A stretch of 64,000 nt of DNA from Rickettsiales bacterium (GCA_027485855.1 JAIXQD010000019.1:146256-210255), one strand, 5' to 3'. Shown: positions 7,247 to 41,820, counted from the stretch's first letter. A program made the numbers and translations. The notes: generated from the sequence alone by a model not told the origin.

Positions 7247-7263
7247 GGCCCTAGTTTAGCGCA

Positions 7264-7304
7264 TAAAAAAAGCGCGGCAAGGTGAACTACACCAAGCCGC
7301 GCCC
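7264..7304 (-). terminator. Rho-independent terminator downstream of rplS
   Basis: On the minus strand, the GCGCGGC...GCCGCGC stem (plus 7296-7302 / 7272-7278) is followed by T7 (plus A-run 7265-7271). Confidence 0.6.
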
Positions 7305-7324
7305 TTAATCGTCAAAAATTATGC

Positions 7325-20509: not shown

Positions 20510-20611
20510 GCTTTATCCCTCCTGCCCGCCAAAAAATAAATGCCCAAAAATAAGCGCTCAAAAATATAAACTGGGCCCAAAAACTTTGCCCGATACCAAA
20601 ATATCAGCACA

Positions 20612-20652
20612 TAAGAAAAAGGCTCGCCACGCATAATATTGTGGCGAGCCTG
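20612..20652 (-). terminator. Hairpin plus T-run immediately after the major pilin gene
   Basis: On the minus strand: AGGCTCGCCAC-aatattatgc-GTGGCGAGCCT followed by TTTTTCTT. Confidence 0.6.
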
Positions 20653-20693
20653 ATAGTTTTACGCAACCAGCAATGCTGCCTTAACAGCAAAGC

Positions 20694-21305: not shown

Positions 21306-21459
21306 AGCAGCCCCTCATCTAGTTGAATAAAAATCAATTGAAATTACGAATAGCATTATCGCCTGTTAGGGTAAATAAACCTTTAAGCCGTTGCTTGTCG
21401 ATTCATTATATTTATTACGCTATTGTTATGTGCTTTTTACGGCACGGCTAAGATATTGA
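21306..21459 (-). promoter_or_regulatory. AT-rich region upstream of pilS; candidate internal promoter
   Basis: 154-bp gap in an otherwise tightly packed operon. A minus-strand TATAAT lies at 21405-21410 and a GAGGGG RBS precedes the ATG. I found no convincing -35 element. Confidence 0.35.
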
Positions 21460-24458: not shown

Positions 24459-24526
24459 AAATTGCCTATCGGTTGCGAAAAAATTTTATGCGAAAAAGTT
24501 TTAATGGCGCGAGCACCAACCACACG

Positions 24527-25462
24527 CTAATTTTTATCAAGGGTAACGGTTTGCTCTTTGCCCTTACTATTGCGCAAAACTACGCTATCGGCAGAGATGG
24601 ACACAATTTGCTGACCATCAGCCAAACTATCGCCAATGCCGACATTTTTGCGCTCGCCGCCACTGCTGACGGTGGCCCGCAGCGAACCTTCAGCCCCTGA
24701 AATGCGCTCAATTTCAACTTTGCCCTCGGGGTTGCGGCGCGGCGAAATGGTGGGCGCAATATTTGCCGATGAATTAAAAGACGGCGAAATATTGGTGGAA
24801 ACGCTCTGCGGATTTGATGGTGCAGGCGGTGGCGGTAAGGGCGTAAGCGAACTGGCTGGCACTGCCGGAATGCCCGATAAGCCACCCGCGCCACCAAAAG
24901 AGGGGCGAGATTTTTGCTCACGCGCATCACGAATTTTGCTGATCTCAGTAAGTTGTTTTTCAATACTGTTCAAAATCTCAAGGCGCTTTAAGGCGTCTTC
25001 AGCGGCGGCGATATCATCAAGGCTGATGCGCGATTGGTCGTTGCGCAGGCGCTCGAGCACTTTATTGACGGCAGCAATATCTTCGGCCGAGCGCGCTTTA
25101 CTGCCGCCAGCTTGAGCGGTTGCGCTGCCGGTATTAGCACTGCCAGCATTCGGCATGCTGGGCACAGCCCCTTGCGTTGCCAAAGGCTTGCCCGCGCCAT
25201 CAAGCAACACAGCTGAGGCGCTGTTGCTGGCGCTATTATTTGTGCTTGTTACTGTGCTGGGGCTGGCGCTATCGGCAGTTGAATTTTTTTCATCGGTCAG
25301 GCTTGGTGCAGGCGGCGGCAATTTTGCTTGCGGCACCTGGGCTAAAGCCGCGCTGCTCAAAAACGCCAGCAGCGTACAACCACCCAACATTAAAATGAGT
25401 TTATGGCCAATAAGTTGATGGCCAATGAGTTTATGGCTGGGTATGGGTTTAGCGCATTTCAT
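24527..25462 (-). CDS. pilP: PilP-like pilus biogenesis protein
   Basis: Has a signal/TM segment, a long Ser/Ala/Pro linker, and a C-terminal beta domain (RATVSSGGERKNVGIGDSLADGQQIVSISADSVVL). Start chosen at MKCAKP. Confidence 0.6.
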   Translation of the reverse strand: MKCAKPIPSHKLIGHQLIGHKLILMLGGCTLLAFLSSAALAQVPQAKLPPPAPSLTDEKNSTADSASPSTVTSTNNSASNSASAVLLDGAGKPLATQGAVPSMPNAGSANTGSATAQAGGSKARSAEDIAAVNKVLERLRNDQSRISLDDIAAAEDALKRLEILNSIEKQLTEISKIRDAREQKSRPSFGGAGGLSGIPAVPASSLTPLPPPPAPSNPQSVSTNISPSFNSSANIAPTISPRRNPEGKVEIERISGAEGSLRATVSSGGERKNVGIGDSLADGQQIVSISADSVVLRNSKGKEQTVTLDKN

Positions 25463-26702
25463 AAATAACCCCTTCTGTCTTCCACGAACCATTAGACCAG
25501 CTGATGCTTTCAATCACAAAGCCGGGTAGGCCCGCATAGCCTTGCCACTGGTGCCATGGTGCAGTGTCGCTGTTTAAGGTAACTTTTCTCTTAACCCATG
25601 GCGGCGGCGGGGGTGGAGCCGGCTGCCCTTGCCTTGGTGGCGGGGGGGGCGGCTCGACCACAGGTTTAAGCGCGGCCCGCCAGTTGCGCCGCAGGGCAAT
25701 TTGCGTGACATCATCTTTGTTTAAAATAACTTCGGTGCCGCGACGAGTGAGGTTTTCTAAGGTAAATTGGCTATTGGCACGCGATTGGCTATCATCCATG
25801 CGGGCATTGGGCGGCACAATGGCCACGCCCGATGTACGCGACCATTCAACGCTTAAAGTGCGCCCCGCACAGGAAAAAGTGGCCAAATTCCACCCCGCCA
25901 TAACCACCGGCACATTTTTCATGGCTTCGCGGCAGGCAGTCATAAAAATTTCAGGCGATGGGGCATCTTCCCAAACACGCTTGGGCGGCTCGGGCAAATT
26001 GGCCTGTGGCAACAACGTAGAGGGCACAGTTTGCAGCCCTTCGCGCAGCCTTTGCTCGCGGGCCTTTTGGCTATTTCTGCGCTCAAGCGCCACTTGTGCG
26101 GCATCGCGCTCGCGTTGCCATTGCAGGCCAGCATAAGCCAGCCCACCCACCACCAAAACGCCCAGCAGCACAAACAAAATGATATTGCGCGGTATGGTAA
26201 CAGGACGCAAAATACCGCTCGACCGGCCTTGCAACAAGAGCGAGAGCGGCACGGGATCGGCGCCCGGAATGGTCCAGCTATCGGGCGCATAAATACGCTG
26301 CAAGCCGCCCAAGCCAATTTCGTGCATGAGACGCTCACGCGCCTCACGCTCATCGGCATAAAGATGGTCGCCATCGGGCGCAATCAGGTCATCGCGAACA
26401 ACGCAAACCCAATAGCCTTCATCTAAACGAAAAGCGCCAACCCACGAGCCGGGCTGCTGGTCGGCCATGCTGGCAGCACCCGTGGGCATGCCTTGGCGAT
26501 GCCCATAGGATTTTTGCCCTAAACCAAATTGTGCCACCCGGCCACTTTTGGTGGCACCCCTTACGGCAAAATAATCGGCTGGTTGCCCTTGCTGACGGGC
26601 GGCCTCACGCGCGGCTTGTGCCACGCGCCCTGATGGGCTGGGCTGCCAATAAAGGCCAACCGCAAATTTGCGCCGCCCAATGCTGACGACACCGCCCGCC
26701 AT
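25449..26702 (-). CDS. pilO: PilO (type IVb, PilO2-like) protein
   Basis: Has the N-terminus IGRRKFAVGLYWQPS characteristic of R64/PAPI-1 PilO, one central TM helix, and a poly-Pro segment. Confidence 0.7.
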   Translation of the reverse strand: MAGGVVSIGRRKFAVGLYWQPSPSGRVAQAAREAARQQGQPADYFAVRGATKSGRVAQFGLGQKSYGHRQGMPTGAASMADQQPGSWVGAFRLDEGYWVCVVRDDLIAPDGDHLYADEREARERLMHEIGLGGLQRIYAPDSWTIPGADPVPLSLLLQGRSSGILRPVTIPRNIILFVLLGVLVVGGLAYAGLQWQRERDAAQVALERRNSQKAREQRLREGLQTVPSTLLPQANLPEPPKRVWEDAPSPEIFMTACREAMKNVPVVMAGWNLATFSCAGRTLSVEWSRTSGVAIVPPNARMDDSQSRANSQFTLENLTRRGTEVILNKDDVTQIALRRNWRAALKPVVEPPPPPPRQGQPAPPPPPPWVKRKVTLNSDTAPWHQWQGYAGLPGFVIESISWSNGSWKTEGVIYEMR

Positions 26703-26705
26703 CGC

Positions 26706-28340
26706 CTAGCCTCGCGATTCAGCAGATGGCTGACCGATATCGACCTCTTGCGGCGTAATCGAGATAAACAACATGCGCCGCGATTCGGTATTAGCATTTC
26801 TGCCGCCCAACAACATGTTAAACGGGCTGCCAACGCCCGAGCGGTCTTGGGTGATGTCGTTTTGATCGACGCCGCTCAGCACCAAAGTTTGCCCACTTTG
26901 CAACATGGCTTGCTGCACAAAAATGCGGCTGGCGGTTTCGGGCAACTGAATAGACGAGCTATTTTGACCCGTGCCCGATGAAAAGGGCTCAATGCCCAGC
27001 AAATCAATCACCGACAGCGAATATTGCAGCAAAATACGGCCATCATCCAAAATGCGCGGCGTGAGCTGCAAAGAATAACCCTGCCGAATAATGCCAGGCT
27101 CAAGTGACGTGCTTTGGAAACTTTGCGAAGTGCTGGTTTCAACACTGGCAAGATAAGCGCGGTCAACACCAATGCGCCGCGTGGCGGGGCGGTTATTCAG
27201 TGTGGTTACGGGCAATTGCGCCACGCGTGACACTTTGCCCTTCGTGGCCAAAGCACGCAATACCGCATCACTGCCCGTGGTCGCGCGGTTGCGCCCCAGA
27301 ATTGTCACGCCAAGCCCGCCCGCGCGTTCGGCGGCTGAAACGCCAGGGATAGTTGCGCCCGTCCACTCAAAGCTGGGGAAGTTGCTGGTTTGCCGCACAA
27401 TGGCGTTTAGGTCGAAGTTGAAATCGACATCGTCGTTGAGATCAAGGCTAAACACCTCAACATTAATGGCCACCTGCTTGGTGAGCTGCACATTTTGGTC
27501 GTCAATAAAACTGGCCACCTGGCGCATGATTTCGGGCGTGGTGATAACCGTAACTGTACCCGTAGACGGCGCCACCTGGAACGAACCCACGCCGCCCAAA
27601 ACGGCCTGCATGGTTTTTTCAAGCTCGCTCCAAAACTCAATTTTAGCGGATAAATCGGCGCTTTGTTTAATGCCGCCACCATTATTACTGGCCGTGGTGC
27701 CGCCGCCTTGCACGCCGCCCTCAAGCTCGCCGGTTAAGCCATCGGTGATTTCAACCGTGCCGGGCATGGAGTAAATGGTAAAAATGCGCGTTTCGAAGCG
27801 CGAGAAAACAATGGCTGCGCCATCATAGCGCCACGACAGACCAAAATTACCCGCCACACGCTCGAGCAAGCCCGACAGCGGGCCTTGCCATTGTATGGGC
27901 ATGGCATCGTTATTATTGGCCGCACCCGCGGCTGGACGTGAAGCACCACCCACAGCGCCCGCTCTTGGGGCGGCGGCCGCAGTATCGGCGCCATCAGCGA
28001 GGCGCACCGGAATGCGGCTTTGCTGGGCGATTTCGTCGGCAATTTCGCGCAAAGTTAATGGCTTTGCCGAAGACAGCACAAACGCATTGGTTGTTTCAAA
28101 GCGCTCGGGCAGGGCTTGGCCACGGCGCGTGCGCACCGCTTTTTGCCCCGTCCACACCTGATCGGTGATTTGCAGCGAATCATGGCGCACGATTTCGGCG
28201 GGGCGCTTGGCGGTATCAACTTCGGTCACGGCCGTTTTTTGCCGCTGCTCAAAATCGCGGTCAAGGCGCTCAGTGTTGCAGGCCGCCAAAGTTGCAGCGG
28301 CCAGAACCAGCGATAGCCCCAGTGATAGGATTTTTTTCAT
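26706..28340 (-). CDS. pilN: Secretin lipoprotein (PilN-like)
   Basis: Begins MKKILSLGLSLVLAAATLAAC (lipobox) and has a C-terminal secretin domain (LVLSGVDQNDITQDRSGVG...LFISITPQ). GGAGAG RBS lies before the ATG at 28340. Confidence 0.85.
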   Translation of the reverse strand: MKKILSLGLSLVLAAATLAACNTERLDRDFEQRQKTAVTEVDTAKRPAEIVRHDSLQITDQVWTGQKAVRTRRGQALPERFETTNAFVLSSAKPLTLREIADEIAQQSRIPVRLADGADTAAAAPRAGAVGGASRPAAGAANNNDAMPIQWQGPLSGLLERVAGNFGLSWRYDGAAIVFSRFETRIFTIYSMPGTVEITDGLTGELEGGVQGGGTTASNNGGGIKQSADLSAKIEFWSELEKTMQAVLGGVGSFQVAPSTGTVTVITTPEIMRQVASFIDDQNVQLTKQVAINVEVFSLDLNDDVDFNFDLNAIVRQTSNFPSFEWTGATIPGVSAAERAGGLGVTILGRNRATTGSDAVLRALATKGKVSRVAQLPVTTLNNRPATRRIGVDRAYLASVETSTSQSFQSTSLEPGIIRQGYSLQLTPRILDDGRILLQYSLSVIDLLGIEPFSSGTGQNSSSIQLPETASRIFVQQAMLQSGQTLVLSGVDQNDITQDRSGVGSPFNMLLGGRNANTESRRMLFISITPQEVDIGQPSAESRG

Positions 28341-28439
28341 ATTGACTCTCCGCTCCACCAAAACCCCGAACCCCCGAAAGAAGCCCCAAAGAAACCCACT
28401 ATAAAACGCACCACAAAGCGCACCATAAAGTTCTGCGGC

Positions 28440-29501
28440 CTAACGGCCATACTGGTTACCGCGCGTGGTAATCACCAACACTGCTTGTCCAGCGGTGCTG
28501 TTTTTATGCAGGCGGCCCATTGGTTGTGGCTCAGCATCAGCTAAGCCTGCCAGCATTTGCCGCAACGCATCTTCATAAGAGCCGGTATAGGCCGAGGTGG
28601 CTTGTAGCGGATAGTCATATTCAGCGTCCCAGCTGAGCTCGACGCCGGCTTTATCCGACCAATTTTGCAACACGCTTTTTAACGTATCGCCGCGCTCGGC
28701 CCGCCACACATATAAAGCTGTGCTGCTGTCGCCCTCAATGGTGGTGGGGCTGGACAGCGCCGCATTTTCGCCCTCGATCAAGAGCGGGGCGGCGTCGCCC
28801 TCAATCACGGCGGCGCCATTAAGCGCATCGGTGCCACTTATTGGCATAGGATTATTTTCATAGGCGGGCAAGACGCCCAAAATGCCCGAGGTGCTGCCGC
28901 CCATAGTCGCTTTAGGCGTAAGCGTCATGGGTGTGGCATCAGGCCCTGTGGCGCTGAGCTGGTCATAGCTGGTGGCGGCCGCGCGTGGTGGCACAAAGGC
29001 CTCACCCGCGCGGGCAATATTGACCATGCCGGTGGCGAAGCTGGCCGACAAACCCACAGATGACAGGCTTTGTTGCAAAACATTTTGCCAGGATTGCCCA
29101 CCACGCCAGCTGACCAGCGTGCCCAAATCAACCGACTCGGCGACCGAAAAACCATGATCGGGCGGCACCACTTGCCGCAACATGGCGCCCAGTGGAATGC
29201 GATTGGCAAAACCCTCTAAGATGGCGCCATCGCTGGCAACACCACTAGCCGAAAGCGCAGGCGCAGTAAGTGGCTGCGGCACAACAGCCATGCTGGGTGA
29301 TGACATAACTGGCGGTAAATTATTTTGCGACCCAGCTAAAGGTAGAGGCTGCGGCAAACGACCAGAGCTGGCATTATTTTGCGCATCAGGCGGCACTAAT
29401 TTAAAACCCGCTTGCGCTGGTGCCACAAGGCAAAGACAAAATAACGCCGCAACAGCACCGCTTAAAAATTTTTGTTTTATGTACATTTTGAAAACAGGCA
29501 T
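28440..29501 (-). CDS. pilL: PilL-like protein with a TcpQ-type C-terminal domain
   Basis: Has a signal peptide and the C-terminus LYVWRAERGDTLKSVLQNWSDKAGVELSWDAEYDYPL, which resembles the PilL/TcpQ family. The start could be 29543, 29501 or 29486. Confidence 0.7.
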   Translation of the reverse strand: MPVFKMYIKQKFLSGAVAALFCLCLVAPAQAGFKLVPPDAQNNASSGRLPQPLPLAGSQNNLPPVMSSPSMAVVPQPLTAPALSASGVASDGAILEGFANRIPLGAMLRQVVPPDHGFSVAESVDLGTLVSWRGGQSWQNVLQQSLSSVGLSASFATGMVNIARAGEAFVPPRAAATSYDQLSATGPDATPMTLTPKATMGGSTSGILGVLPAYENNPMPISGTDALNGAAVIEGDAAPLLIEGENAALSSPTTIEGDSSTALYVWRAERGDTLKSVLQNWSDKAGVELSWDAEYDYPLQATSAYTGSYEDALRQMLAGLADAEPQPMGRLHKNSTAGQAVLVITTRGNQYGR

Positions 29502-29731
29502 GACCACTCCGGCAAAATGTAAAACGCTGTCGCTTGCAAGCACCAGTAAAAGCTGATTCGTGCATGAAAGCAGTTAATATATTGTTTTGACAGAACAGTG
29601 GCTGCCAGACAATGGCTAAAAGCCTTTAGCCCCGATACAGATGTCGCTCGTGACTTAACTGCACCATGCAGCGGGCAAAACCGGCAATCAGAGAGCTGGC
29701 CAGAAAACTGCCCGCAAAAAAGCCGCACAGT

Positions 29732-32934: not shown

Positions 32935-33867
32935 CTATTGAACTTTTACCGGTGGCGGCAAATCGGCAATGATTTGGCTGATTTGCTCGGGCACGCCATC
33001 AACCACTTTCACCACGCCTGCTCTATCGCGATAAACAATATAAGGCGTTGATGGCAGTTTCCACCGATCGAACAAAGCGCGATTAGAAATAACTTTTTGC
33101 AAACCGGGTAAGGGCGGGTTATCGGTGAGACCATCAAGCTTGCCATCGACAATGCGGTTCCAGCCGGCTTCTTTGTCGGCCATTTCAAGCCAATGGGCGG
33201 CAATATTGCGCGAGCGCTCGCCCAAAATATCCACCGGCACGAGGCGCAATTTCACGCTGCCCGCTTTCAGGTAAGGCTCGGCAAATTGCCCCCAAGCTTT
33301 TTTGCAGTGACGGCAGAGTGGGTCAACCACCATGGTCAGTTCTGGCGCATTGGCTTGGCCAATAGTCACGCCGTGCGCTGCCACGAGTTCGCGTAAAAGT
33401 TTTTCACCTGGCGAGACCGCCGCCGCACTCAGTTTTTGCTGACGCAACACATCGTCTTTGACTTGGCCGAAGGCATCTTGCATCTGGTTCATGCCTTGCT
33501 GAAACAAGGCCGCCACACGCGGGTCGCTATCGCGCAAGCGCTGCAATTGCTGGGCGGTGACCAGCTCGTCCTTATCGTTATAAAGCGCGCCATTCATCAG
33601 ACCGCGGCGGTCGGGCGTGGCGTAAAGGATTTGAATATTATCGTCGCGCTGCAATAAAAATCCGGGCATGCCATACTCATCGCCCAGATAAAAAACATTG
33701 GTGCCCGGCTGCACCATTTTTTCAATGAGCGCTTGGGCGGTGGGGTCGGGCTTGCCGAGTGCCGCGCCAGCCAAAGGGTTATCGGCCGTTTGTGCCATGG
33801 CCATAACCGGCAGCAAGAGGCCGAACAACAAAGCCAGAAAAGAAACGGGCAATAAACGCTTAACCAT
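32935..33867 (-). CDS. Periplasmic DsbC/TrbB-like thiol:disulfide interchange protein
   Basis: Has a signal peptide and the thioredoxin-fold CxxC motif VVDPLCRHCKKAW. Confidence 0.75.
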   Translation of the reverse strand: MVKRLLPVSFLALLFGLLLPVMAMAQTADNPLAGAALGKPDPTAQALIEKMVQPGTNVFYLGDEYGMPGFLLQRDDNIQILYATPDRRGLMNGALYNDKDELVTAQQLQRLRDSDPRVAALFQQGMNQMQDAFGQVKDDVLRQQKLSAAAVSPGEKLLRELVAAHGVTIGQANAPELTMVVDPLCRHCKKAWGQFAEPYLKAGSVKLRLVPVDILGERSRNIAAHWLEMADKEAGWNRIVDGKLDGLTDNPPLPGLQKVISNRALFDRWKLPSTPYIVYRDRAGVVKVVDGVPEQISQIIADLPPPVKVQ

Positions 33868-33899: not shown

Positions 33900-34394
33900 T
33901 TACCGCATCGCCAAAACTTGACCATTGACTGAACGCTCGGGCGCAATTTTGCTGACTGGCCCCACTGAAGTTGTTGGGGGGTAGTCTTTAATCAGCCCCT
34001 TGCGCTGCATGGCCAAAACAACCTTACGCGCATAGGCATAACCCAATTGTGGCGTGGCCGAATGGTAACGGGCAAAGCCGCCAAAAACCGAGCCGGTGCT
34101 TTTTATGTGCGTTTTCAAAATCCATGCCGCGACATGGGTATTGACGCATGGATCATCGCGCACCCAAGCCCGCGCGGTGCGCTCATCGACCTCCCACATT
34201 TTTGCAAGCTGCGGCAACCACACAGTGTTGATTTGCATGGGGCCTAAATCGTAGGTGCCGTTAGTATTAGGCCCCACCTCTTGCCCAACTCTGCCGCCCT
34301 CAACTTGATAAATGCCCACCAAATAGGCGGGCTCAAAGCTATAGAGCTGCGCTGCTGCAACAATACATGCCGCAAGTGTAGAGACAACGCCCAT
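33900..34394 (-). CDS. SLT-domain lytic transglycosylase (VirB1 / R64 PilT-like)
   Basis: Has IYQVEGGRVG (catalytic Glu context) and YDLGPMQINTVWL. Confidence 0.85.
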   Translation of the reverse strand: MGVVSTLAACIVAAAQLYSFEPAYLVGIYQVEGGRVGQEVGPNTNGTYDLGPMQINTVWLPQLAKMWEVDERTARAWVRDDPCVNTHVAAWILKTHIKSTGSVFGGFARYHSATPQLGYAYARKVVLAMQRKGLIKDYPPTTSVGPVSKIAPERSVNGQVLAMR

Positions 34395-35266: not shown

Positions 35267-35836
35267 TTATCTTTTGTCTGGAATAAGGGGAGCAGTTGCA
35301 GGAGCTGGCACAGAAGAGGGTGTTGTGGCTTGTGGGGCACGCAAACGCGCCAGCTCTTTTTCGCTGCTACGATATTGGCACAAACCATAGCTAAGGCTGC
35401 CATTGCTGCCGCCTTGCTCATCGGCAGTGGCCGTATTGCAGGCCGCATCACGCGCCGCGACAAATTTATCAAAAGCCGCTTGTACGGCAGGGTCGATTTT
35501 TATGGCTGTGCCATCAGTGGGCTTTTGCTCGGTGGGTTTTTGCTGAGTGGGGCTGTGCATCGATTGCATCTGCGCTAACAGCACAGCATCAAGCTTGGCG
35601 CCTTCTTCGAAAATGCAATCGGTTTGGGCTAAAATATTTTCTAGCTGTTCGCAGCGGCTTAAATTGGGGGCTTTGCTATTGGCTGCCTCGGATGCTGCGG
35701 GTGCAGCCTTTGCGGCCACGGGCGCTGCTGTTTGCGAATGCGCCGGCAGCACAAAGGTCGCCGTGATAAGGCCAAATAAGGCCAAGGCGGTGATAAGCAA
35801 GCGCATGCGCATGATGCTCTTTTTTTGCTGTTGCAT
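35267..35836 (-). CDS. Periplasmic DUF1311/LprI-like protein; candidate immunity protein for the upstream lysozyme-like tail
   Basis: Has a signal peptide and a DUF1311-like Cys pattern: CEQLENILAQTDC...FVAARDAAC...GSNGSLSYGLC...ELARL. Its RBS AGGAGG lies inside the last codons of the upstream gene, with the ATG 3 nt after the stop. Confidence 0.55.
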   Translation of the reverse strand: MQQQKKSIMRMRLLITALALFGLITATFVLPAHSQTAAPVAAKAAPAASEAANSKAPNLSRCEQLENILAQTDCIFEEGAKLDAVLLAQMQSMHSPTQQKPTEQKPTDGTAIKIDPAVQAAFDKFVAARDAACNTATADEQGGSNGSLSYGLCQYRSSEKELARLRAPQATTPSSVPAPATAPLIPDKR

Positions 35837-35839
35837 GAC

Positions 35840-38137
35840 TTAGCCTCCTGGTCTTGTTGGCGCTGCGGGTGCTGCAGCCGGACAGCTTGCCCGAACAATA
35901 TCCTCAATCTCGCGGGTGTAGCGCCCCTGACAGGCCGATGACCACCCACCTGTTGCCGCAGAGCAATACCCACCCCGCGAACGATACAATGCCCGCAATT
36001 GCGATTCAATGTCCATTGAGCGCCAATTGGGGTTTTCGCGCTCAAATTTGCTGAGCAAGGCGCCAACATTACCATGCTGCACGCCAATTGACCACATGGC
36101 CTGCTGCACACGAATATCATTCATATCCCAGCCACCCTGCCGGCGGAAATTATTAACGGCGTTACCGTAATTAACCCGCCTGATATATTCGTGCTGCATT
36201 TCGGCAAAATTGGGGTCGTTGATAGATTTCCATGCATTTTCAAAGGCGCGCCACGTTGTGGGGGTTGAGCCACGGCCATTATTGGGCGGCAAGAGCGGCT
36301 CAAGCCTTTGCCGAACCGGTGAATTGGCCGGAAGGCCCCGCACAAAAGCATGTACACTGCCCGCGGCGCCAGCCAATTGATAGCTCCCAAAAGACTTGCC
36401 GCCACGATCGCGCAAAGCCGCAGCATCGGAATTGACCGAGTTTGGATTGCCGTTCGATTCATAGCGAGCGGTAATCGTGCCAAGGCGGCATGCATCAATA
36501 GGTAAGCCACTGCCACTGCCCGGCCCCGTGAAGAAATCAAAGCCCTCGGGCACGCGCGCCAAAGCACCCAAAGCAAAATCGATATATTCGACATCAGCCA
36601 TCACGCCATTTTCGTCGGGCACATCAAAGACCGAGCCATAGCCTTTAGGCAAAGGCCGCTGCACGGGCTGTGCCCCCGCAGGTAAAACGGGATGCGGAAT
36701 ACGTTTTTTATCGGCCGACATCAGCGTGGCCTCAAGCAGCATGATTTGTTCAATCAGCTGGTTTTTGCGCCATTTAAGCTGATTAAGCGTGCCGAGGCTT
36801 TGATTGATATAACGCAATTTCACTGTGTCCGGCGCGGACGACGCGGCAATGTGCCACCTTGTGCTGAAACGCTCAGAAAACATCAATTCCATAATTTTAT
36901 GCTCGGACAACATCACATTATCCGGAATGGTATAGCCGGCTTCTTTCATCATGCCGCGCCCCCAAGTGAGAATACCCTCGGTGCTGCCGGCTTGGGGTGC
37001 CACCGGCATACGGCGCGCAATAATTTGCTGGCAGGTATAAAAAGCCAGCTGATTGCTGGCCTGCCAGCCACGCAATTTCATCAGATAGACCGGATTGGCG
37101 TTGGCTAAATTACCGCGCACCGGATCAAGCACGGTGGGCAGTACCACATTATCGCAATAAGCTTTGGCGGCCGCGCGCGCCCAGTCAGGCTGCTCGCCCG
37201 CCGCTTGCTGGCGCAAACGCAAAATATCATGCACCAGAATGGAGCGCGGATTTATATCCATATCGGGCAAAGCACCATTGATTTCTTTTGCATCAGCGCC
37301 ACGACAGCGCGGGTCTTGCGGGTTGGTGCTTTTACAATCTTGGAAAGAATGCATGCGGTCTTCGAAGCGCTTATTCACATCGGCCAACATGCCACGCGCT
37401 GCGGCAATTTCGCGCGCGGGCTGGCTAGAGCTAGATTGACCAGAGCTAGTTTGGCCAGAGCGAGACTGGCCTGCGGCGGGTGCTGCACCTGCCGGAGCTG
37501 CGGCCACTGCCGAAGCTGGATTTGCGCTAGCTGGGTTTGCAGATGCGCCACCCACTCTGCTAACGCCGCCACTATTGCCGCCACTATTGCCGCCACCCAG
37601 CGAGGCCGCCACTTGCTGCATACGCTCGGCGCTACTATCTTGCGTGCGATTAAGCAAACGATCTTCGGCTGACGCTGCCAGCAACGCTGCTTGCATTACG
37701 GTATTAGTTTCAACGGCGGCTAAATCGCGCTGGCCAGAGGCCACAACACAGCCTTGCCGACCCACATCGGGTGCAAATTTTTCGGCCACATCCATTTTGG
37801 CGCGGCGCTGTAAATTTTCGTATTTATTTTGAATTTCGGCGTTGGCAATTTTGCCCTTAACTTGTGCGCGCAATTGCTCGGCGGTGATATCGGCCGTAGC
37901 ACCCGCGCTTTTTAGATATTGCATTAAAGCCGCAAACACCGTTTGCAATATGGTGGCAACGCCGCCAATAGCCACACCGGTTGCCGCCATGGGAGCTGCG
38001 GCCGCATTACATTCGGCTTCAGCGGGGGGACATTGTACAACAGCCATCGACGCACGCACTGGCACAAGCACCAGCACGCCCGCCAAAATCATATGGCGAG
38101 TAAGCCTCATAATATTAAGCTTACGGCTTGATTGCAC
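35840..38137 (-). CDS. Paralogue A: shared N-domain plus a C-terminal lysozyme/SLT-superfamily-like domain
   Basis: GTG start with AAGGAG 5 nt upstream. Has a signal peptide, then a hydrophobic segment. The N-domain is very similar (by eye) to paralogue B. The C-terminal tail of about 221 aa (35843-36505) has ARYESNGNPNSVNS...GGKSFGSYQL, which resembles the E-S...N-P...G..G..Q pattern of SLT/VgrG3-type muramidases. Confidence 0.75.
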   Translation of the reverse strand: MQSSRKLNIMRLTRHMILAGVLVLVPVRASMAVVQCPPAEAECNAAAAPMAATGVAIGGVATILQTVFAALMQYLKSAGATADITAEQLRAQVKGKIANAEIQNKYENLQRRAKMDVAEKFAPDVGRQGCVVASGQRDLAAVETNTVMQAALLAASAEDRLLNRTQDSSAERMQQVAASLGGGNSGGNSGGVSRVGGASANPASANPASAVAAAPAGAAPAAGQSRSGQTSSGQSSSSQPAREIAAARGMLADVNKRFEDRMHSFQDCKSTNPQDPRCRGADAKEINGALPDMDINPRSILVHDILRLRQQAAGEQPDWARAAAKAYCDNVVLPTVLDPVRGNLANANPVYLMKLRGWQASNQLAFYTCQQIIARRMPVAPQAGSTEGILTWGRGMMKEAGYTIPDNVMLSEHKIMELMFSERFSTRWHIAASSAPDTVKLRYINQSLGTLNQLKWRKNQLIEQIMLLEATLMSADKKRIPHPVLPAGAQPVQRPLPKGYGSVFDVPDENGVMADVEYIDFALGALARVPEGFDFFTGPGSGSGLPIDACRLGTITARYESNGNPNSVNSDAAALRDRGGKSFGSYQLAGAAGSVHAFVRGLPANSPVRQRLEPLLPPNNGRGSTPTTWRAFENAWKSINDPNFAEMQHEYIRRVNYGNAVNNFRRQGGWDMNDIRVQQAMWSIGVQHGNVGALLSKFERENPNWRSMDIESQLRALYRSRGGYCSAATGGWSSACQGRYTREIEDIVRASCPAAAPAAPTRPGG

Positions 38138-38163: not shown

Positions 38164-38547
38164 CTACTGTGTTAATTTATCAAATAACTTAAGTGCGGTT
38201 TCTCGCGGCACGCCATTGCTACGCAAAACGCTTTCGCTGGGCACGCCGCCATCAAAATACAGCACCGACCATTTGCCCTTATCTTGCTTAAGTACAAATG
38301 GACCCGCCGACACTTCGTCCTGCCAATAGCCCGATACATAAGGCGGCACCGAGCGGCTAACACTAATTTCCATGCCGGCAACCTTACCGGGATTAAGCAA
38401 GCCCTCGGCCACGGCTTGCATTTTTTGGTCGGCCGCTTCAACACCCGCTGGTAATTTTGCCGGCGCGCTTTGGGCGGCATTACCGATGCCAAACACCGTT
38501 AAAACCAAAACCAAGAACGAGCCAAAAAAGATGCGCTTATGTTTCAT
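38164..38547 (-). CDS. Small periplasmic protein; candidate immunity protein for the upstream CHAP tail
   Basis: 127 aa with the signal peptide MKHKRIFFGSFLVLVLTVFGIGNAAQS. The ATG lies 8 nt after the upstream stop, with a GGTAGGAGA RBS. Confidence 0.5.
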   Translation of the reverse strand: MKHKRIFFGSFLVLVLTVFGIGNAAQSAPAKLPAGVEAADQKMQAVAEGLLNPGKVAGMEISVSRSVPPYVSGYWQDEVSAGPFVLKQDKGKWSVLYFDGGVPSESVLRSNGVPRETALKLFDKLTQ

Positions 38548-38555: not shown

Positions 38556-40541
38556 CTACCCACGGGGCCGATAAATTTGTGTGGCACCACCAAACCTGTT
38601 AAAATAGCCATTACGTGCCAAGCCCACATTGGCACCGCGCCCATTATTATTATAGGCCAGCGTGCAGCCCACATTGGCGCAAATGCCCACATGGCTATAC
38701 ATACGGCCGCCCACCACACCACGTATCATCACAATATCGCCGGGCTGCGCTTGTCCGGGGCTGACGCGTGTGCCACCGCCACTTTGTAAATAATTCTGCA
38801 TGCCGGCCACGCTGAGCGTGCCACCGGGAGGAATCATGCTGCGCCCCGATGCGGCCAGCAAATAATTGACATATTGGGCGCAGCCAAGGTTGCCCGTATA
38901 GGCAGGGCCGCACACCACCGCACCATTACGGCCGCTGGTGCAGTTAGTCGCATCGGCATAGCCACCCGGAATGGGCCGCCCCACTAAAGATTGCGCAAGC
39001 GCCATAAGATCGTTGCTGACAACTTGAATGCCAGATAGGCCGCCGCCGCCCTCGGCAACATCGCCGCCCGTGCCATCAAAATCAATATTATCGCCTTGCA
39101 GTTCGGCAAAAGAGGCTTCGGCTAAATCAAAATCGACATAGCGCACATCGTCGTTCACGCCATCCGCATTGACATCTAAATCAAGAATCTCGCCAACACC
39201 CGTGGGCAGCGGTAAGCTGGTGGGAGTTGCACCTGGCGCTAATTGTGGCAGTGGTATTTTGTTTTTATCGCTGGATAAAATGCTCGCTTCGAGCAGGCCA
39301 AGTTGCTCAAGCAGTTCGTGCTTGCGCCATTTCAGCTGATTATAAGTGCCAAATGTTTGGCTGATATAACGCAGTTTTACACTGTCAGGGGCGCTGGCGG
39401 CGGCGATATTCCAGCTGGTGCTGAAGCGCTCACGAAACAGCAATTCCATAATTTTATGCTCGGACAACACAGCATCGGCCGGAATATCATAGCCAAATTC
39501 TTGCATCAGCGCCTTGCCCCAGTTCAGCGGGCTTGCAGCATTGCCGCCCGCTTCGGCCGAAATGGGCATGCGCCGTGCGGCAATCTGCGCGCAAACATGC
39601 CCCGCCAGCTGTTTGGCCGCCTGCCAGCCGCGCAGTTTCATCATGTAAACCGGATTGGCGTTGGCCAAATTGCCCCGCACCGGATCCAGCGTGACGGGCA
39701 ATATCACATTTTCGCAATAGGTGAGCGCGGCCAGCTTGGCCCAATCGGGCTCGCTTGGGTTTTGATAGCGCAGGCGCAAAATATCGTGCGTTAAAATAGT
39801 GCGCGGCATAATATCAAAATCGGCCAAGGCACCATCGGTGCATTCAGTGTTTTTGGGGTCGGTGTTTTTACAATTTTGGAAATTGAGCATGCGTTTTTCA
39901 AAGCGCTCATTCACATCGGCCAGCATGCCACGCGCGGCGGCCACCTCGGCGCAGGCACTGTCATTATCGGCTGCCGCCGGAATATCAAGCCCCAATAAAC
40001 GAGCCGTTTGGCGCAAGCGCTCATGCGCCGAGCCGCAATCACGATTAACCAGGCGGTCTTCGACCGCAGCTTCAATCGGCACGGCTTGCAGCGCCGAGTT
40101 ATTTTCGGCCGCCATCAGCGCTTGCTGACCCGAGGCCGCAACACAGCTTTGCCGGCCAACATCCGGCGTGAAATTTTGCGCAACCTGCATTTTGGCTTCG
40201 CGCTGCATGTTTTCGTAACTTGCCTGATTTTCGGCATTGGCGATTTTTGCACTGACTTGCGCACTGAGCTGCTGCGCCGATACTTCGGCCGTGCTGCCCG
40301 CGCTTTCTAAAAACTGCATAATAGCCACAAAGGCTGCTTGAATGGCTGTGGCCACCGCAGTCAAAGCGCCACCCACAGCAACAGTGGGTGCAATGGCCGC
40401 AGCACAACCAGGGCAAGTATCCATCGCGGCGCTGGCCTGTGCGGCGCGCGGCGGCAGGGCCAGCCCCACCACCAACAGCAACGCCATCACGCCAAAACGG
40501 CAGCGCGCCATACGAGTACCTGCGCCAGCAAGAGACAGCAT
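38556..40541 (-). CDS. Paralogue B: shared N-domain plus a C-terminal CHAP/NlpC-P60-like domain
   Basis: ATG at 40541 has AAGGAGG 8 nt upstream. The ORF-track start at 40712 would overlap paralogue C. The C-terminal 150 aa (38559-39008) has GCAQYVNYLL (Cys nucleophile context) and GDIVMIRG...YSHVGIC (His), which is a CHAP/NlpC-P60 arrangement. Confidence 0.75.
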   Translation of the reverse strand: MLSLAGAGTRMARCRFGVMALLLVVGLALPPRAAQASAAMDTCPGCAAAIAPTVAVGGALTAVATAIQAAFVAIMQFLESAGSTAEVSAQQLSAQVSAKIANAENQASYENMQREAKMQVAQNFTPDVGRQSCVAASGQQALMAAENNSALQAVPIEAAVEDRLVNRDCGSAHERLRQTARLLGLDIPAAADNDSACAEVAAARGMLADVNERFEKRMLNFQNCKNTDPKNTECTDGALADFDIMPRTILTHDILRLRYQNPSEPDWAKLAALTYCENVILPVTLDPVRGNLANANPVYMMKLRGWQAAKQLAGHVCAQIAARRMPISAEAGGNAASPLNWGKALMQEFGYDIPADAVLSEHKIMELLFRERFSTSWNIAAASAPDSVKLRYISQTFGTYNQLKWRKHELLEQLGLLEASILSSDKNKIPLPQLAPGATPTSLPLPTGVGEILDLDVNADGVNDDVRYVDFDLAEASFAELQGDNIDFDGTGGDVAEGGGGLSGIQVVSNDLMALAQSLVGRPIPGGYADATNCTSGRNGAVVCGPAYTGNLGCAQYVNYLLAASGRSMIPPGGTLSVAGMQNYLQSGGGTRVSPGQAQPGDIVMIRGVVGGRMYSHVGICANVGCTLAYNNNGRGANVGLARNGYFNRFGGATQIYRPRG

Positions 40542-40560: not shown

Positions 40561-41820
40561 TTATTTTTCCCACGGCGCTTTCGCCGATGTGGGCGTGGCA
40601 CCCGCGGGCAAGACCGGCGGATTATCCTGCAACACAGCCGAAAGCTGCGCTGCACGCAACATAGCCAAACGCTCGAGCATTTCATATTCGCGCCACTCTT
40701 GCTGCGAGACAAACGCCAAAGACTGGTTGATAGAGGTCAGCATGTCTTTCGGTTCGCTATTGGCGTAAAAGGCCACATCCTTGAAAATATCGTAGTAAAG
40801 CGTGCGCAAAATATCTTGCTCTGAAGCATTTTCCGGCACGGTGCGGCCAACACGGGCGGCAATGGTTTTGCCCCATTCAAGCCTGCTGGTATCAACTGGT
40901 GCGCCACCGCGCGTCACTTCGTTGGCGGGCGTGCGCGTGGTCATTATGTCAAGGCAGACGAGATCGACCAAGCTGAGGCGCGCATCCACACCACGACGCT
41001 GCATGTGATAGACCCGACCTTGCGGGCTATTCAGCAACTGGCCCGTGACGGGATCAGGCACAACGGGGTCTTTGATGTGGCTACAAAAAAGCTGAGCTGC
41101 GCCCACATGGCCATCATCGCCCGAGCCCAAATTATCGGACAGCAGAATATCGGCGCGAATATCGGTGTTTCTCTTGTTGGGGTCATCTTGGCAGCGTGGA
41201 TTTTTGGGGTCAACCTGATCGCAATCAAGATAGCCGCCCTTGGCCAAAGCGACCACACTGGCCGACGCATCGGCCTGCGTGCCGCGCTGGGCGGGGCCTG
41301 CAGCATTAGTGCTGCGCTTTAATGCATTGCCACGAGCCACACTGGCTAAAAAGCGCGTATTGGCTGCCGCTGCTGTTGCCGCTTGCGCACCCGATGCGCG
41401 CACGCACGCATCTTTATTGGTGGATGGGGCATATTGCTGCGCCACCCGCATTTTGGCTTCGCGCTGCAGATTTTCAAAATCATTCTGAATTTTGGCATTG
41501 GCTATTTTAGCGTCAATTTGTGCTTGCAACTGCACCGCCGAAACTTTGGCCGTGCTGCCCGCGCTGGTGATAAAACTGAGCATCAGCTGCATAGCAGTGA
41601 TAGCGGCAGTTAACACGCCTGTGACCGCAGCACCAACAGCCGTAACCGCGCCCACCAACGCTTGCGCTTGTGCCACTTGCGGCGTGCCAAACAACAAAGC
41701 ACCCGCCAGCAACAAAGTGGCCGCGCCCCTGCCTAAAGACCCCAAGGGATTTTTTCGCGGATTTTTTTGCGGATTTTGCCGCCGATTTTGCCCCGCGCTA
41801 TTTTGCATAAGCTGGTGCAT
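40561..41820 (-). CDS. Paralogue C: the shared N-domain only, with no enzymatic tail
   Basis: 419 aa. Aligns by eye with A and B: SAGSTAKVSAVQLQAQIDAKIANAKIQNDFENLQREAKMRVAQ matches SAG[AS]TA[DE][IV][ST]A[EQ]QL..QV..KIANAE.QN.YEN[LM]QR.AKM.VA. Ends just after the shared LPAGATP junction. Confidence 0.7.
   Translation of the reverse strand: MHQLMQNSAGQNRRQNPQKNPRKNPLGSLGRGAATLLLAGALLFGTPQVAQAQALVGAVTAVGAAVTGVLTAAITAMQLMLSFITSAGSTAKVSAVQLQAQIDAKIANAKIQNDFENLQREAKMRVAQQYAPSTNKDACVRASGAQAATAAAANTRFLASVARGNALKRSTNAAGPAQRGTQADASASVVALAKGGYLDCDQVDPKNPRCQDDPNKRNTDIRADILLSDNLGSGDDGHVGAAQLFCSHIKDPVVPDPVTGQLLNSPQGRVYHMQRRGVDARLSLVDLVCLDIMTTRTPANEVTRGGAPVDTSRLEWGKTIAARVGRTVPENASEQDILRTLYYDIFKDVAFYANSEPKDMLTSINQSLAFVSQQEWREYEMLERLAMLRAAQLSAVLQDNPPVLPAGATPTSAKAPWEK

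Follow-up and report, generated by a model that had tools for sequence, protein, structure and literature searches.

A predicted lysozyme-like tail on a TraW/IcmX-like protein and its putative exported inhibitor in a Rickettsiales chromosomal island

Gene content of the locus

In this study we analysed one stretch of DNA of 64,000 nucleotides (the 64-kb window) from a Rickettsiales bacterium (GCA_027485855.1 JAIXQD010000019.1:146256-210255), with positions counted from its first letter. The window carries three tandem paralogues with a common core, here called A, B and C, which sit in a chromosomal island together with DotB/C/D, IcmT and an R64-type thin-pilus cluster. Paralogue A and the gene that directly follows it have the following features:

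35840..38137, minus strand: paralogue A, an ORF of 765 aa with a GTG start and AAGGAG upstream (coordinates checked)
38045..38137, minus strand: predicted Sec signal peptide of A, residues 1-31, ...VPVRASM/A (translation inspected)
36563..38044, minus strand: TraW/IcmX (VirB5-equivalent)-like core of A, residues 32-525 (core homology)
37418..37591, minus strand: low-complexity Gly/Ser/Ala/Pro/Gln insert of A, residues 183-240 (alignment)
36485..36562, minus strand: Gly-rich linker between core and tail of A, residues 526-551 (A/B alignment, translation)
36041..36484, minus strand: predicted lysozyme/chitosanase-like peptidoglycan hydrolase domain of A, residues 552-699 (PF21277)
35840..36040, minus strand: C-terminal 66 residues of A plus stop codon, with three Cys
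35844..35849, minus strand: AGGAGG ribosome-binding site of the 189-aa gene (sequence read directly)
35267..35836, minus strand: 189-aa exported protein, putative cognate inhibitor (immunity protein) of the tail of A (ORF, independent gene call)
35735..35836, minus strand: predicted Sec signal peptide of the 189-aa protein, residues 1-34, ...VLPAHS/Q (inspection)
35348..35653, minus strand: DUF1311/LprI-like region of the 189-aa protein, residues 62-163 (PF07007)

Paralogue A is arranged as signal peptide, TraW/IcmX-like core, linker and lysozyme-like tail, and its last 66 residues fall beyond the Pfam PF21277 match. The low-complexity insert, which the alignment places in A and in neither B nor C, consists of short in-frame tandem repeats (37421-37471, period 15; 37565-37596, period 12). 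An earlier note on this DNA had marked 35267 to 36505 as a lysozyme-like tail coupled to a periplasmic protein; its coordinates were exact, position 36505 being codon 545 of A. The other two paralogues, and the gene that follows B, are located immediately upstream of A:

40561..41820, minus strand: paralogue C, 419 aa, TraW-like core only (alignment)
38556..40541, minus strand: paralogue B, 661 aa from the ATG at 40541, with the core as in A and another tail (alignment)
38556..39044, minus strand: tail of B, papain-like CHAP/NlpC-P60-type, GCAQY ... SHVGIC (sub-threshold Pfam matches)
38164..38547, minus strand: 127-aa exported protein, putative inhibitor of the tail of B (ORF, signal-peptide-like N-terminus)

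Further genes of the island lie downstream on the same strand:

33900..34394, minus strand: TrbN/VirB1-like lytic transglycosylase in the same operon (PF01464 SLT; NCBIfam TrbN, E=2.5e-21)
32935..33867, minus strand: TrbB/DsbC-like thiol:disulfide interchange protein (BLASTP E=3e-16 to its plasmid counterpart)
29732..32514, minus strand: homologues of DotD/TraH, DotC/TraI, DotB/TraJ and IcmT/TraK (sequence matches)
18546..29543, minus strand: R64-type type IVb (thin) pilus genes (Pfam)

The Dot/Icm homologues were recognised by the Pfam families DotD (E=9e-30), T4SS_TraI (E=4.5e-76) and T2SSE (E=3e-36) and by a match to IcmT (E=1e-14), and the pilus genes comprise PilL-like, PilN secretin, PilO, PilP-like, PilQ ATPase, PilR, PilS pilin and PilV-like members. 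Thioredoxin_2 and DsbC_N gave weak matches to the TrbB/DsbC-like protein, and such a protein fits the Cys-rich exported proteins encoded nearby. DotA/TraY, DotG/H/F, DotO and a coupling protein were all absent from the 64-kb window, so that a complete machine on which a tip protein could be mounted is not evident there. A relaxase, an integrase and a flanking tRNA were likewise not found in the 64 kb.

At the junction between A and the 189-aa gene, the AGGAGG (35849-35844 on the minus strand) lies within the final codons of A, 7 nt ahead of the ATG, and is followed by TAA (35842-35840), a GTC spacer and ATG (35836-35834). Direct reading of the sequence therefore agrees exactly with the earlier description of a ribosome-binding site in the end of A and a start codon 3 nt past its stop. 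That this coupling marks a toxin and its immunity protein, as had also been suggested, does not follow: in ten consecutive junctions of the operon, the gap ranges from -1 to 32 nt (in order on the minus strand -1, 19, 8, 26, 3, 6, 2, 32 and 15 nt, for the genes of C, B, the 127-aa protein, A, the 189-aa protein, a 287-aa protein, the SLT protein, the Dsb-like protein and a 91-aa protein). Genes are closely packed throughout this operon, so that the 3-nt gap is not diagnostic of a pair.

The shared core, the tails and their partners

Profile comparison places the roughly 500-aa N-terminal core of A distantly within the IncI TraW family, as an equivalent of IcmX and VirB5. The earlier note had recognised neither this nature of the carrier nor the third, tail-less paralogue. 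When the A/B/C core was compared by hhalign with a canonical profile of seven TraW-like proteins, R64 TraW included, the probability was 97.7% (E=1.9e-12 over 314 columns), and three Cys were invariant in all ten sequences. Paralogue C matched MPF_I plasmid proteins of Acetobacteraceae (tblastn E=1e-6, BLASTP E=6e-14) and, over its full length (residues 59-400), an HMM of 83 sequences (E=9e-16). None of A, B and C matched NCBIfam conj_TraW (NF033888), the cut-off of which is 100 bits; a bridging Acetobacter plasmid protein reached 29 bits (E=5.9e-7). The homology of the core to TraW is transitive, via alphaproteobacterial plasmid proteins, and the match of that alphaproteobacterial family to R64 TraW itself is moderate (E=0.017-0.13 with our own HMMs). 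R64 and the alphaproteobacterial plasmids have in common the order TraV-like, TraW-like, one gene, DotA/TraY, which was not found here, the window having no DotA/TraY homologue. No PDB chain matched the A/B/C core by sequence, and an AlphaFold2 model of the core from three sequences (pLDDT 32) was unusable. TraW, IcmX and VirB5 are equivalent proteins that form a stalk/pilus pentamer (PMC12624023, PMC12857230).

The lysozyme-like character of the tail of A, proposed earlier, was clearly borne out. Pfam PF21277 (T6SS_VgrG3-like_C, gathering score 27 bits) matched the tail alone with 74.2 bits (E=1.7e-20) and the whole of A with 71.2 bits (E=1.5e-19). The Vibrio cholerae VgrG3 chains 4NOO and 4NSO align with the tail at an E of about 1e-5, with RYES of the tail opposite KYES of VgrG3 and RDRGGKSFGSYQL opposite GDYGGASYGCYQM, so that the motifs YES and D-x-GG-x-S-F/Y-G-x-YQ are kept between the two. 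A weak match to GH46 was also obtained. On these profile matches and alignments, the tail of A is a VgrG3C-type lysozyme/chitosanase-like domain. VgrG3 reportedly cleaves the glycan chain, and its catalytic residues are said to be those of lysozyme-like chitosanases (PMC12663445).

Gene calling on an independent assembly also yielded the 189-aa protein, and the frame of this protein has a codon-usage score of 0.29 against -0.29 and -0.56 for the other two frames. Inspection of its translation revealed a K/R-rich stretch, a hydrophobic stretch and AHS at the N-terminus and no lipobox in the signal peptide, in agreement with the earlier claim of an exported protein. Its four Cys (62, 74, 133 and 153) have a 2+2 layout, C62-x11-C74 ... 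C133-x19-C153, and the loop between the pairs contains QQKPT/EQKPT repeats (tandem repeat at 35514-35551). PF07007 (LprI) matched the whole protein with 18.9 bits (E=0.002) and the domain alone with 20.8 bits (E=5e-4, profile positions 14-104 of 106), in both cases short of the gathering score of 22 bits. LprI is the best Pfam match of the isolated domain, and TPR_23 outranks it when the whole protein is searched. Among PDB entries the DUF1311 structure 3GI7 matched best (E=0.29), and both C-terminal Cys coincide in the alignment. A single-sequence AlphaFold2 model, of too low confidence to be usable (pLDDT 56), predicted helices at 61-93, 116-140, 146-156 and 159-166, and Foldseek of this model against PDB found nothing below E=1.

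Four conserved Cys are a trait of the DUF1311/LprI family (PMC7933661), and the 189-aa protein probably belongs to it. The DUF1311 assignment of the earlier note is supported by the four-Cys layout and by a nearly full-length best match for the domain, and falls under the Pfam cut-off. Its further argument, that LprI is a lysozyme inhibitor, is shaky: ScwA, an LprI-domain protein, regulates MltD levels, deletion of scwA left lysozyme sensitivity as before, and the authors of that study credit the inhibition by LprI to its second domain, MliC (PMC7933661). No homologues of the 189-aa protein were found in searches of 5.8 billion proteins and of 1.8 billion representative proteins, and for this reason neither covariation nor family-wide linkage nor co-occurrence can support the pairing.

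The paralogue pattern gives a different line of evidence. A and B are 49% identical overall and 64% identical over the conserved block, with similarity collapsing at the linker, and A and C are 36% identical; C, with B directly downstream, stops just before the linker, at the point from which A and B continue into their tails. The tail of B matched CHAP (E=1.4e-4, 22.7 bits; cut-off 26), NLPC_P60 (E=2e-3, 18.4 bits; cut-off 23) and DUF6950 (E=4e-3, 17.6 bits), all papain-like cell-wall amidase/peptidase-type families and all sub-threshold, and no PDB match was found for it. A and B have alternative C-terminal domains, PF21277 and CHAP/NlpC-P60-like, on one carrier core. A different exported partner is encoded directly downstream of each (the 189-aa protein after A; the 127-aa protein after B, starting 8 nt past it) and none after the tail-less C. 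Both partners have predicted signal peptides. Their family matches differ or are lacking, none having been found for the 127-aa protein. A and B fit the layout of polymorphic toxins, with a conserved carrier, swapped tails and tail-specific exported partners. Among 78 complete metagenomic canonical TraW-like ORFs, none had a hydrolase tail; 76 stop at the canonical end and the other two are fused to a neighbouring gene, with no toxin. No relatives of the A/B/C core turned up when contigs from genomes, metagenomes and viruses were scanned with motifs, a search bounded by the patterns chosen. Since tailed relatives were not found elsewhere, the polymorphic-toxin pattern rests on one locus.

Comparison with known systems

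The closest parallel is VgrG3 with its inhibitor TsiV3/TsaB (PDB 4NOO, 4NSO), whose catalytic domain belongs to the same family, PF21277, as the tail of A. In both, the enzyme sits C-terminally on a structural protein from the tip of a secretion machine (a presumed role for A), and a gene for a periplasmic inhibitor, putative for A, lies directly downstream. The carrier is a TraW/IcmX-like T4BSS protein in A and a VgrG spike in VgrG3, the inhibitor is DUF1311-like for A and TsiV3-like for VgrG3, and the window is without T6SS genes. The enzyme of A would be exported by Sec to the producer's own periplasm, unlike VgrG3, which stays cytoplasmic until the T6SS fires. We also considered A as an evolved VgrG and rejected this, with no VgrG domain in A and no T6SS family in about 55 ORFs of the window.

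DUF1311 proteins are predicted or tested immunity proteins beside cell-wall-targeting T6SS effectors (PMC9796082, PMC12135965, PMC12981562). Their genes have been found downstream of lysozyme-like T6SS effectors (Pantoea hcp-island orphans) and beside WHIX effectors (PMC9796082, PMC12135965), and Etsi4 of EHEC is a DUF1311 immunity protein that rescues toxin expression and pairs with Etse4 (PMC12981562). Etsi4 scores 18.7 bits against the LprI profile, compared with 18.9-20.8 bits for the 189-aa protein, and both have the 2+2 Cys layout, with no pairwise sequence similarity between them. In the DUF1311-type T6SS pairs, and putatively here, a small protein with a signal peptide adjoins a wall-targeting toxin acting in the periplasm. 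Etse4 has no PF21277 domain, unlike A, and Etse4-type effectors are delivered by a T6SS, which would not be the case for A.

With regard to the carrier, R64 TraW, Legionella IcmX and VirB5 (TrwJ) are also exported by Sec, and the core found here, of about 390-420 aa, is collinear with the MPF_I TraW-position family. A, B and C cluster with DotB/C/D and IcmT, as in IncI1/Dot-Icm systems; unlike R64 TraW, they fall under the conj_TraW cut-off, occur in three tandem copies and have no adjacent DotA/TraY. Enzyme-like tails are present on A and B and on none of the 78 metagenomic or seven plasmid TraW-like relatives. Tandem, diverged copies of the VirB5 equivalent (TrwJ) in one locus are also known from Bartonella Trw (PMC12857230); those copies are thought to vary adhesion, whereas A and B differ by enzyme-like extensions and partner genes.

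Bacterial killing by a T4BSS has a precedent in the kib T4BSS of Pseudomonas putida IsoF (PMC9519443), whose cluster likewise includes trbN and dotD. In kib, both the effector and its immunity protein act in the cytosol, and the effector forms a separate substrate, in contrast to A, which bears a hydrolase-like tail on a structural-type subunit. The X-Tfi immunity proteins of the Xanthomonas/Stenotrophomonas X-T4SS are periplasmic, as quoted in PMC9519443. Like the present locus, X-T4SS and kib combine a type IV system with effector/immunity pairs, which are putative here. X-Tfes are separate substrates, recognised via a C-terminal signal.

Interpretation of the tail-partner pairs

Taking together the domain identities, the gene order with its junctions, the paralogue pattern and the homology between the core and the TraW-position family, we propose that A and B are tip-mounted peptidoglycan hydrolases with cognate periplasmic inhibitors, a reading to which we give a probability of about 0.55. 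A would be a Sec-exported TraW/IcmX-type subunit, of a family forming the pentameric stalk/channel tip in IncI and Dot/Icm systems, that gained a C-terminal VgrG3C-type domain predicted to cut peptidoglycan glycan strands. The 189-aa gene would be translated from the mRNA of A, and its product, a periplasmic, disulfide-bonded, helical DUF1311-like protein, would bind and block the tail of A. As enzyme and inhibitor would both enter the periplasm of the producer, an inhibitor would be needed, primarily against self-lysis of the producer and secondarily as protection for sister cells. The enzyme may become active only once the tip protein has been pushed from the producer into the envelope of a contacted cell. 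B and its 127-aa partner would form a second module of like design with a CHAP/NlpC-P60-like, peptide-cutting tail, and C would be a plain structural version. We infer enzymatic activity, inhibitor binding, tip location and delivery to another cell, and the purpose might be either the killing of rivals or the breach of a mating partner's wall. For the toxin-immunity interpretation as a whole, the domains, the predicted export and the tail-partner pattern speak in favour; the DUF1311 cut-off and the arguments from LprI and from coupling do not.

It is possible, though we consider it unlikely, that the tails of A and B act in cis and open the producer's own peptidoglycan for assembly of the T4BSS or type IVb pilus, a VirB1-like function placed on a VirB5-like subunit, with the 189-aa and 127-aa proteins as spatial or temporal brakes and not as immunity proteins. 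Such a role would suit one tightly packed operon shared with secretion and pilus assembly genes, the predicted export of enzyme and inhibitor to one periplasm, and a family in which no member with alternative toxin tails was found. T4SS and pilus clusters also often include peptidoglycan hydrolases, such as the TrbN/VirB1-like protein here and the R64 pil lytic transglycosylase. However, because a dedicated SLT is already present in the operon, two more hydrolases with inhibitors look like effectors and not like assembly aids, and the lytic transglycosylases of the examined R64 and Acetobacter plasmid loci have no annotated inhibitor neighbour. A glycosidase and a peptidase/amidase, each with a private inhibitor, are the pattern of antibacterial effector sets, and the nearest characterised relative of the tail of A is a T6SS toxin.

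We judge it rather improbable that the 189-aa protein is an unrelated periplasmic helper (chaperone, assembly factor or ScwA-like regulator) whose position reflects operon packing. Across the three paralogues, a tail goes with a partner and the lack of a tail with the lack of a partner, DUF1311 genes recur beside wall-degrading effectors, and the LprI match, sub-threshold as it is, is equalled in weakness by that of Etsi4, which nevertheless rescues toxin expression. The sub-threshold LprI score, tight junctions throughout the operon, the regulation of MltD levels by ScwA with unchanged lysozyme sensitivity upon scwA deletion (PMC7933661), and the lack of homologues, hence of co-occurrence evidence, speak for such a helper. 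Very improbable in our view is a third explanation, that the locus is the decayed remnant of an integrated IncI-like conjugative element in which A, B and their partners are no longer deployed. Only DotB/C/D, IcmT, TrbB-like, TrbN-like and TraW-like genes are present, and DotA, DotG/H, DotO, coupling protein, relaxase, integrase and flanking tRNA are absent within the 64 kb, as a remnant would have it; but the missing genes may sit elsewhere on the 306-kb contig or in the genome. Decay is also at odds with the state of the ORFs, all of which are intact, score well in codon usage and have ribosome-binding sites, with paralogues that keep 49-64% identity and conserved Cys, and with a pilus cluster that looks complete.

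Enzyme-inhibitor pairs are known from other bacterial weapons, and a TraW/IcmX-like carrier is unusual among them. If A and B are indeed tip-mounted hydrolases with cognate inhibitors, this island would represent the known effector-immunity logic on a new carrier.

An island carrying three TraW-like paralogues

The three tandem paralogues A, B and C and the small genes 3' of A and B belong to an island of ~25 kb, which spans about 18.1-43.6 kb of the window and is flanked by glycolysis genes (GAPDH, 17100-18107) and by alphaproteobacterial flagellar genes (DksA-like, FliX, FlgI and others).

Features of the island (positions in the window)
18546-29543, minus strand: R64-type type IVb thin pilus genes (PilL-like, PilN secretin, PilO, PilQ, PilR, PilS, PilV-like)
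29732-32514, minus strand: DotD/TraH, DotC/TraI, DotB/TraJ and IcmT/TraK homologues
35267-35836, minus strand: 189-aa ORF, 3' of A (ORF call)
35840-38137, minus strand: paralogue A, 765-aa ORF (ORF call)
38164-38547, minus strand: 127-aa ORF with signal peptide, 8 nt 3' of B (ORF)
38556-40541, minus strand: paralogue B, 661 aa, upstream of A (ORF, alignment)
38556-39044, minus strand: tail of B, CHAP/NlpC-P60-like (sub-threshold Pfam matches)
40561-41820, minus strand: paralogue C, 419 aa, directly upstream of B, tail-less (alignment)

The DotD, DotC, DotB and IcmT homologues are located directly upstream of a complete-looking chromosomal thin-pilus cluster, and the closest plasmid homologues of DotC were found in Acetobacteraceae (~42% identity), so that the host may itself be a member of this family. 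A TrbB-like thiol:disulfide interchange protein, a TrbN/VirB1-like lytic transglycosylase and several orphan ORFs are also encoded in the island. Within the 64-kb window, no DotA/TraY, DotG/H/F/I, DotO, coupling protein, relaxase, integrase or tRNA was detected; the locus may encode part of a T4BSS, one portion of a split system, or a hybrid machine. A phage or defence-system origin of the locus was dropped, its neighbours being T4BSS and pilus genes, and PADLOC models gave no matches for eight island proteins.

Two further genes of the window are worth recording. The PilV-like minor pilin (18546-19916, minus strand) has an N-terminal methylation motif and a Peptidase_S74 ('chaperone of endosialidase') end (E=1.9e-15), a domain that typically terminates the tail spikes and tail fibres of phages. 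A 1613-aa ORF without any Pfam match (53684-58525, minus strand) adjoins a MacB/FtsX-type ABC transporter (49636-52898).

A and B share an N-terminal region of ~500 aa, with 64% identity over the best-conserved block, and are fully unlike past a Gly-rich linker. C has 36% identity to A, and its end coincides precisely with the start of the tails in the other two; it overlaps the stop of an upstream 378-aa ORF by 1 nt, and B starts 19 nt after C with no small ORF between them. Thus, one core is present in three versions: without tail or partner, with a peptidase-like tail and one partner, and with a glycosidase-like tail and a second partner. In our view this pattern is the strongest available evidence that the small exported proteins may be matched to the tails.

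For the tail of B, all matches were sub-threshold and belonged to papain-like families of cell-wall amidases and peptidases (CHAP, E=1.4e-4; NlpC/P60, E=2e-3; DUF6950), with the Cys/His motifs GCAQY...SHVGIC; a search against PDB sequences gave nothing significant. The 127-aa protein had neither a family match nor a significant PDB sequence match. The tail of B and this exported orphan are a candidate second enzyme/inhibitor pair. Short in-frame tandem repeats with periods of 12 or 15 were also observed on the minus strand (37418-37591, 35514-35551, 41747-41789 and 42621-42650), encoding low-complexity stretches in A (GNSGGNSGG, SGQTSSGQSSS), the 189-aa protein (QQKPTEQKPT), the N-terminus of C (RKNPQKNPRKNP) and the 378-aa ORF (GNTGGNTGGNTG).

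Relationship of the shared core to TraW and IcmX

Searches of Pfam, NCBIfam and PDB with A, B or C revealed no match to the core, and PDB sequence searches with a core profile gave nothing significant. Among the up to 8000 candidates covered by the full-length search with A, a limit that was probably reached owing to the low-complexity insert of A, only A and B themselves were present, and scans of genome, metagenome and viral contigs with two short peptide patterns per scan found no core relatives. The AlphaFold2 model of A from a three-sequence alignment was unusable (pLDDT 32). When C was compared with plasmids by tblastn, we identified hypothetical proteins of ~390 aa (E=1e-6), encoded by MPF_I conjugative plasmids from Acetobacter, Roseomonas and related bacteria. 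By BLASTP, the protein from the Acetobacter sp. AC2005 plasmid matched both C (E=6e-14) and B (E=8e-6); it also matched NCBIfam conj_TraW (NF033888) over positions 40-340 of 380 (E=5.9e-7), although the match does not reach the curated cut-off.

Gene order in four alphaproteobacterial plasmids (small gene, TraW-like gene, one variable gene, DotA/TraY) mirrors the traV-traW-traX-traY order of R64. The variable gene in these MPF_I plasmids encodes 458, 701, 478 and 555 aa, compared with 194 aa for R64 TraX in the equivalent position. A ten-sequence alignment of six plasmid proteins, R64 TraW and A, B and C was collinear with three invariant Cys, and hhalign of the A/B/C core against seven canonical sequences gave 97.7% probability (E=1.9e-12, 314 columns). 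An 83-member family HMM, including 78 metagenomic sequences, found C over residues 59-400 with E=9e-16 (database size, one million). R64 TraW itself was only moderately similar to the alphaproteobacterial family (E=0.017 to 0.13 with our HMMs). Within the A/B/C family, the link to TraW-like proteins from MPF_I plasmids runs through C. According to recent reviews, R64 TraW and Legionella IcmX are equivalents of VirB5 and form a pentamer at the tip of the stalk or pilus atop VirB6/DotA (PMC12624023, PMC12857230), and a cryo-EM study presents DotA-IcmX as a pentameric protochannel that becomes longer upon activation (bioRxiv 10.1101/2025.06.23.660953).

When metagenomes were scanned for the canonical TraW-like family, 80 loci were recovered, and 76 of the 78 complete ORFs stop at the canonical end. 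The other two, of ~930 aa (metagenome contigs Ga0157360_1001679 and JAABUX010009063.1), are extended by the neighbouring gene in frame; toxin tails were ruled out for them by BLASTP matches to the 458-aa plasmid neighbour (E=4e-79 and 2e-36), which normally precedes DotA/TraY. These two may be genuine fusions, or artefacts of assembly or of a frameshift. No enzyme tail was present in the 7 plasmid proteins and 78 metagenomic ORFs related to the core. As far as these searches reach, putative hydrolase tails on TraW-like proteins were observed only at this locus.

The tail of A and the exported 189-aa protein

The C-terminal domain of A matched PF21277 (T6SS_VgrG3-like_C) over residues 552-699, scoring 71 bits in the full-length sequence and 74 bits when the tail was scored by itself (cut-off, 27 bits). 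By phmmer against PDB sequences, it also matched the C-terminal domain of Vibrio cholerae VgrG3 (4NOO, 4NSO; E ~1e-5), and the alignment retained the motif pairs RYES/KYES and RDRGGKSFGSYQL/GDYGGASYGCYQM (A tail/VgrG3); a weak match to GH46 chitosanase was observed as well. VgrG3 is reported to have catalytic residues in common with lysozyme-like chitosanases and to cleave the glycan chains of peptidoglycan (PMC12663445). Because of these three matches and this description, the label 'lysozyme-like tail' in the earlier note is correct. Only three matches to the tail were found among 72,556 plasmids, all in unrelated contexts, and a scan of viral contigs found none.

The same note had regarded the tight coupling of A to the next gene as a sign of a toxin and its immunity protein. 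Read directly from the sequence, the junction is exactly as it had described, with AGGAGG (35849-35844), C, TAA (35842-35840), a 3-nt spacer (GTC) and ATG (35836), and position 36505 is codon 545 of A. As evidence for such a pair, the coupling proved non-specific, since short gaps recur across the operon (-1, 19, 8, 26, 3, 6, 2, 32 and 15 nt at consecutive junctions). The frame of the 189-aa protein had a codon-usage score of 0.29 against housekeeping genes from within the window (the two alternative frames scored -0.29 and -0.56), and the protein is also a called gene on a contig from an independent short-read assembly. Promoter and terminator scans gave counts not above those in shuffled sequence. 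A 287-aa ORF without signal peptide (34397-35260, minus strand) separates the 189-aa gene from the lytic transglycosylase (SLT) gene, with gaps of 6 nt and 2 nt, respectively; its only matches, to DUF6750 and MakE, were faint.

The 189-aa protein starts with a K/R-rich segment followed by LLITALALFGLITATFVL and AHS/Q, a typical Sec signal by inspection only, and contains four Cys (C62-x11-C74 and C133-x19-C153). Its match to LprI/DUF1311 (PF07007) spans profile positions 14-104 of 106 but stays under the cut-off of 22 bits, at 18.9 bits (E=0.002) with the full-length sequence and 20.8 bits (E=5e-4) with the isolated domain. PF07007 was the best Pfam match when the domain was scored alone, whereas a sub-threshold TPR_23 (EspA-like) match ranked higher for the whole protein (E=2e-4); the latter was rejected, falling below LprI with the domain alone, and is most likely an effect of Ala-rich helical composition. 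The best PDB sequence match was the DUF1311 structure 3GI7 (E=0.29), in which both C-terminal Cys and a GGSNG/PGSNA loop line up. No homologue other than the protein itself was found in a word-indexed set of 5.8 billion proteins or by full phmmer against 1.8 billion representatives, and tblastn against plasmids gave nothing relevant at E<=10. A single-sequence AlphaFold2 model contained helices only and was weak (pLDDT 56), and Foldseek found no match to it under E=1. The assignment to DUF1311 is probable: the signal peptide, the 2+2 Cys and the near full-length match speak for it, and the sub-threshold score speaks against it.

Such a score is normal for proteins of this kind, because Etsi4 (Sakai ECs_0213; locus 7166-7615, E. 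coli O157:H7 Sakai), an EHEC protein with experimental support as a DUF1311 immunity protein and reported to rescue toxicity of the periplasm-acting T6SS effector Etse4 (PMC12981562), scores only 18.7 bits (E=0.0023) against PF07007, also under the 22-bit gathering score. Both proteins have the 2+2 Cys layout and fall just under the Pfam LprI cut-off. Etse4 (ECs_0214) itself had no Pfam domain at E<=0.01, and the presence of PF21277 in this toxin was ruled out. In Pantoea, LprI-domain proteins that carry signal peptides have been reported as immunity proteins, either orphan or cognate, encoded 3' of lysozyme-like T6SS effectors (PMC9796082), and similar proteins have been reported beside WHIX effectors (PMC12135965). 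The pairing of a lysozyme-like effector with DUF1311-type immunity is therefore already known from T6SS, and A with the 189-aa protein would add one more example. The appeal of the earlier note to LprI as a lysozyme inhibitor carries less weight than it might seem to: deletion of scwA, encoding the Salmonella LprI-domain protein ScwA, left lysozyme sensitivity unchanged, and the authors ascribed LprI activity to its separate MliC domain (PMC7933661).

Possible roles of the putative armed tip subunits

The reading that we favour, with a probability of about 0.55, is that A and B are tip subunits bearing peptidoglycan hydrolases, which are inhibited in the periplasm by the 189-aa protein and the 127-aa protein, respectively. 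Each hydrolase and its inhibitor would both reach the periplasm of the producer via Sec, and therefore the inhibitor would first have to guard against self-lysis; after extrusion of the tip subunit into the envelope of a contacted cell, the enzyme would act there, either to kill competitors or to breach the wall of a mating partner. Killing mediated by a T4BSS has a precedent in Pseudomonas putida IsoF (PMC9519443). The toxin-immunity part of the earlier proposal, a predicted function, is upheld in part: the domains and the paralogue pattern speak for it, and the sub-threshold DUF1311 membership counts against it.

A less probable alternative is that the hydrolases act in cis during assembly, with the small proteins as brakes. 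A separate SLT is already present, which argues against this, as does the combination of a glycosidase and a peptidase with a private inhibitor each, an effector-like set. It is unlikely that the 189-aa protein has another role, and we consider it very improbable that the locus is a decayed remnant.

Returning to the favoured reading of armed tips, we tentatively extend it to the whole locus: an apparatus encoded on the chromosome and descended from an IncI/Dot-Icm-type T4BSS and its thin pilus might possess 'evolved' VirB5/IcmX-like tips that carry a glycosidase and a peptidase, each with private periplasmic immunity. If true, this would be a type IV counterpart of evolved VgrG spikes, and would give type IV systems a new means of attacking neighbouring bacteria or of breaking into them.

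The pair itself is of a known kind; the novelty is its carrier, a subunit of the TraW/IcmX/VirB5 class with one tail-less and two armed versions. As both the 189-aa protein and Etsi4 fall below the LprI cut-off, family-based screens will miss such immunity genes. Subunits of the VirB5/IcmX class are thought to be located at the very tip of type IV channels or pili and to be the first to meet the target cell. If hydrolases are delivered from this position, type IV machines could be armed via a structural subunit, as T6SS spikes are, the locus would offer a simple genetic handle for asking whether tip subunits enter the recipient envelope, and the few type IV systems that serve against bacteria would gain a further member.
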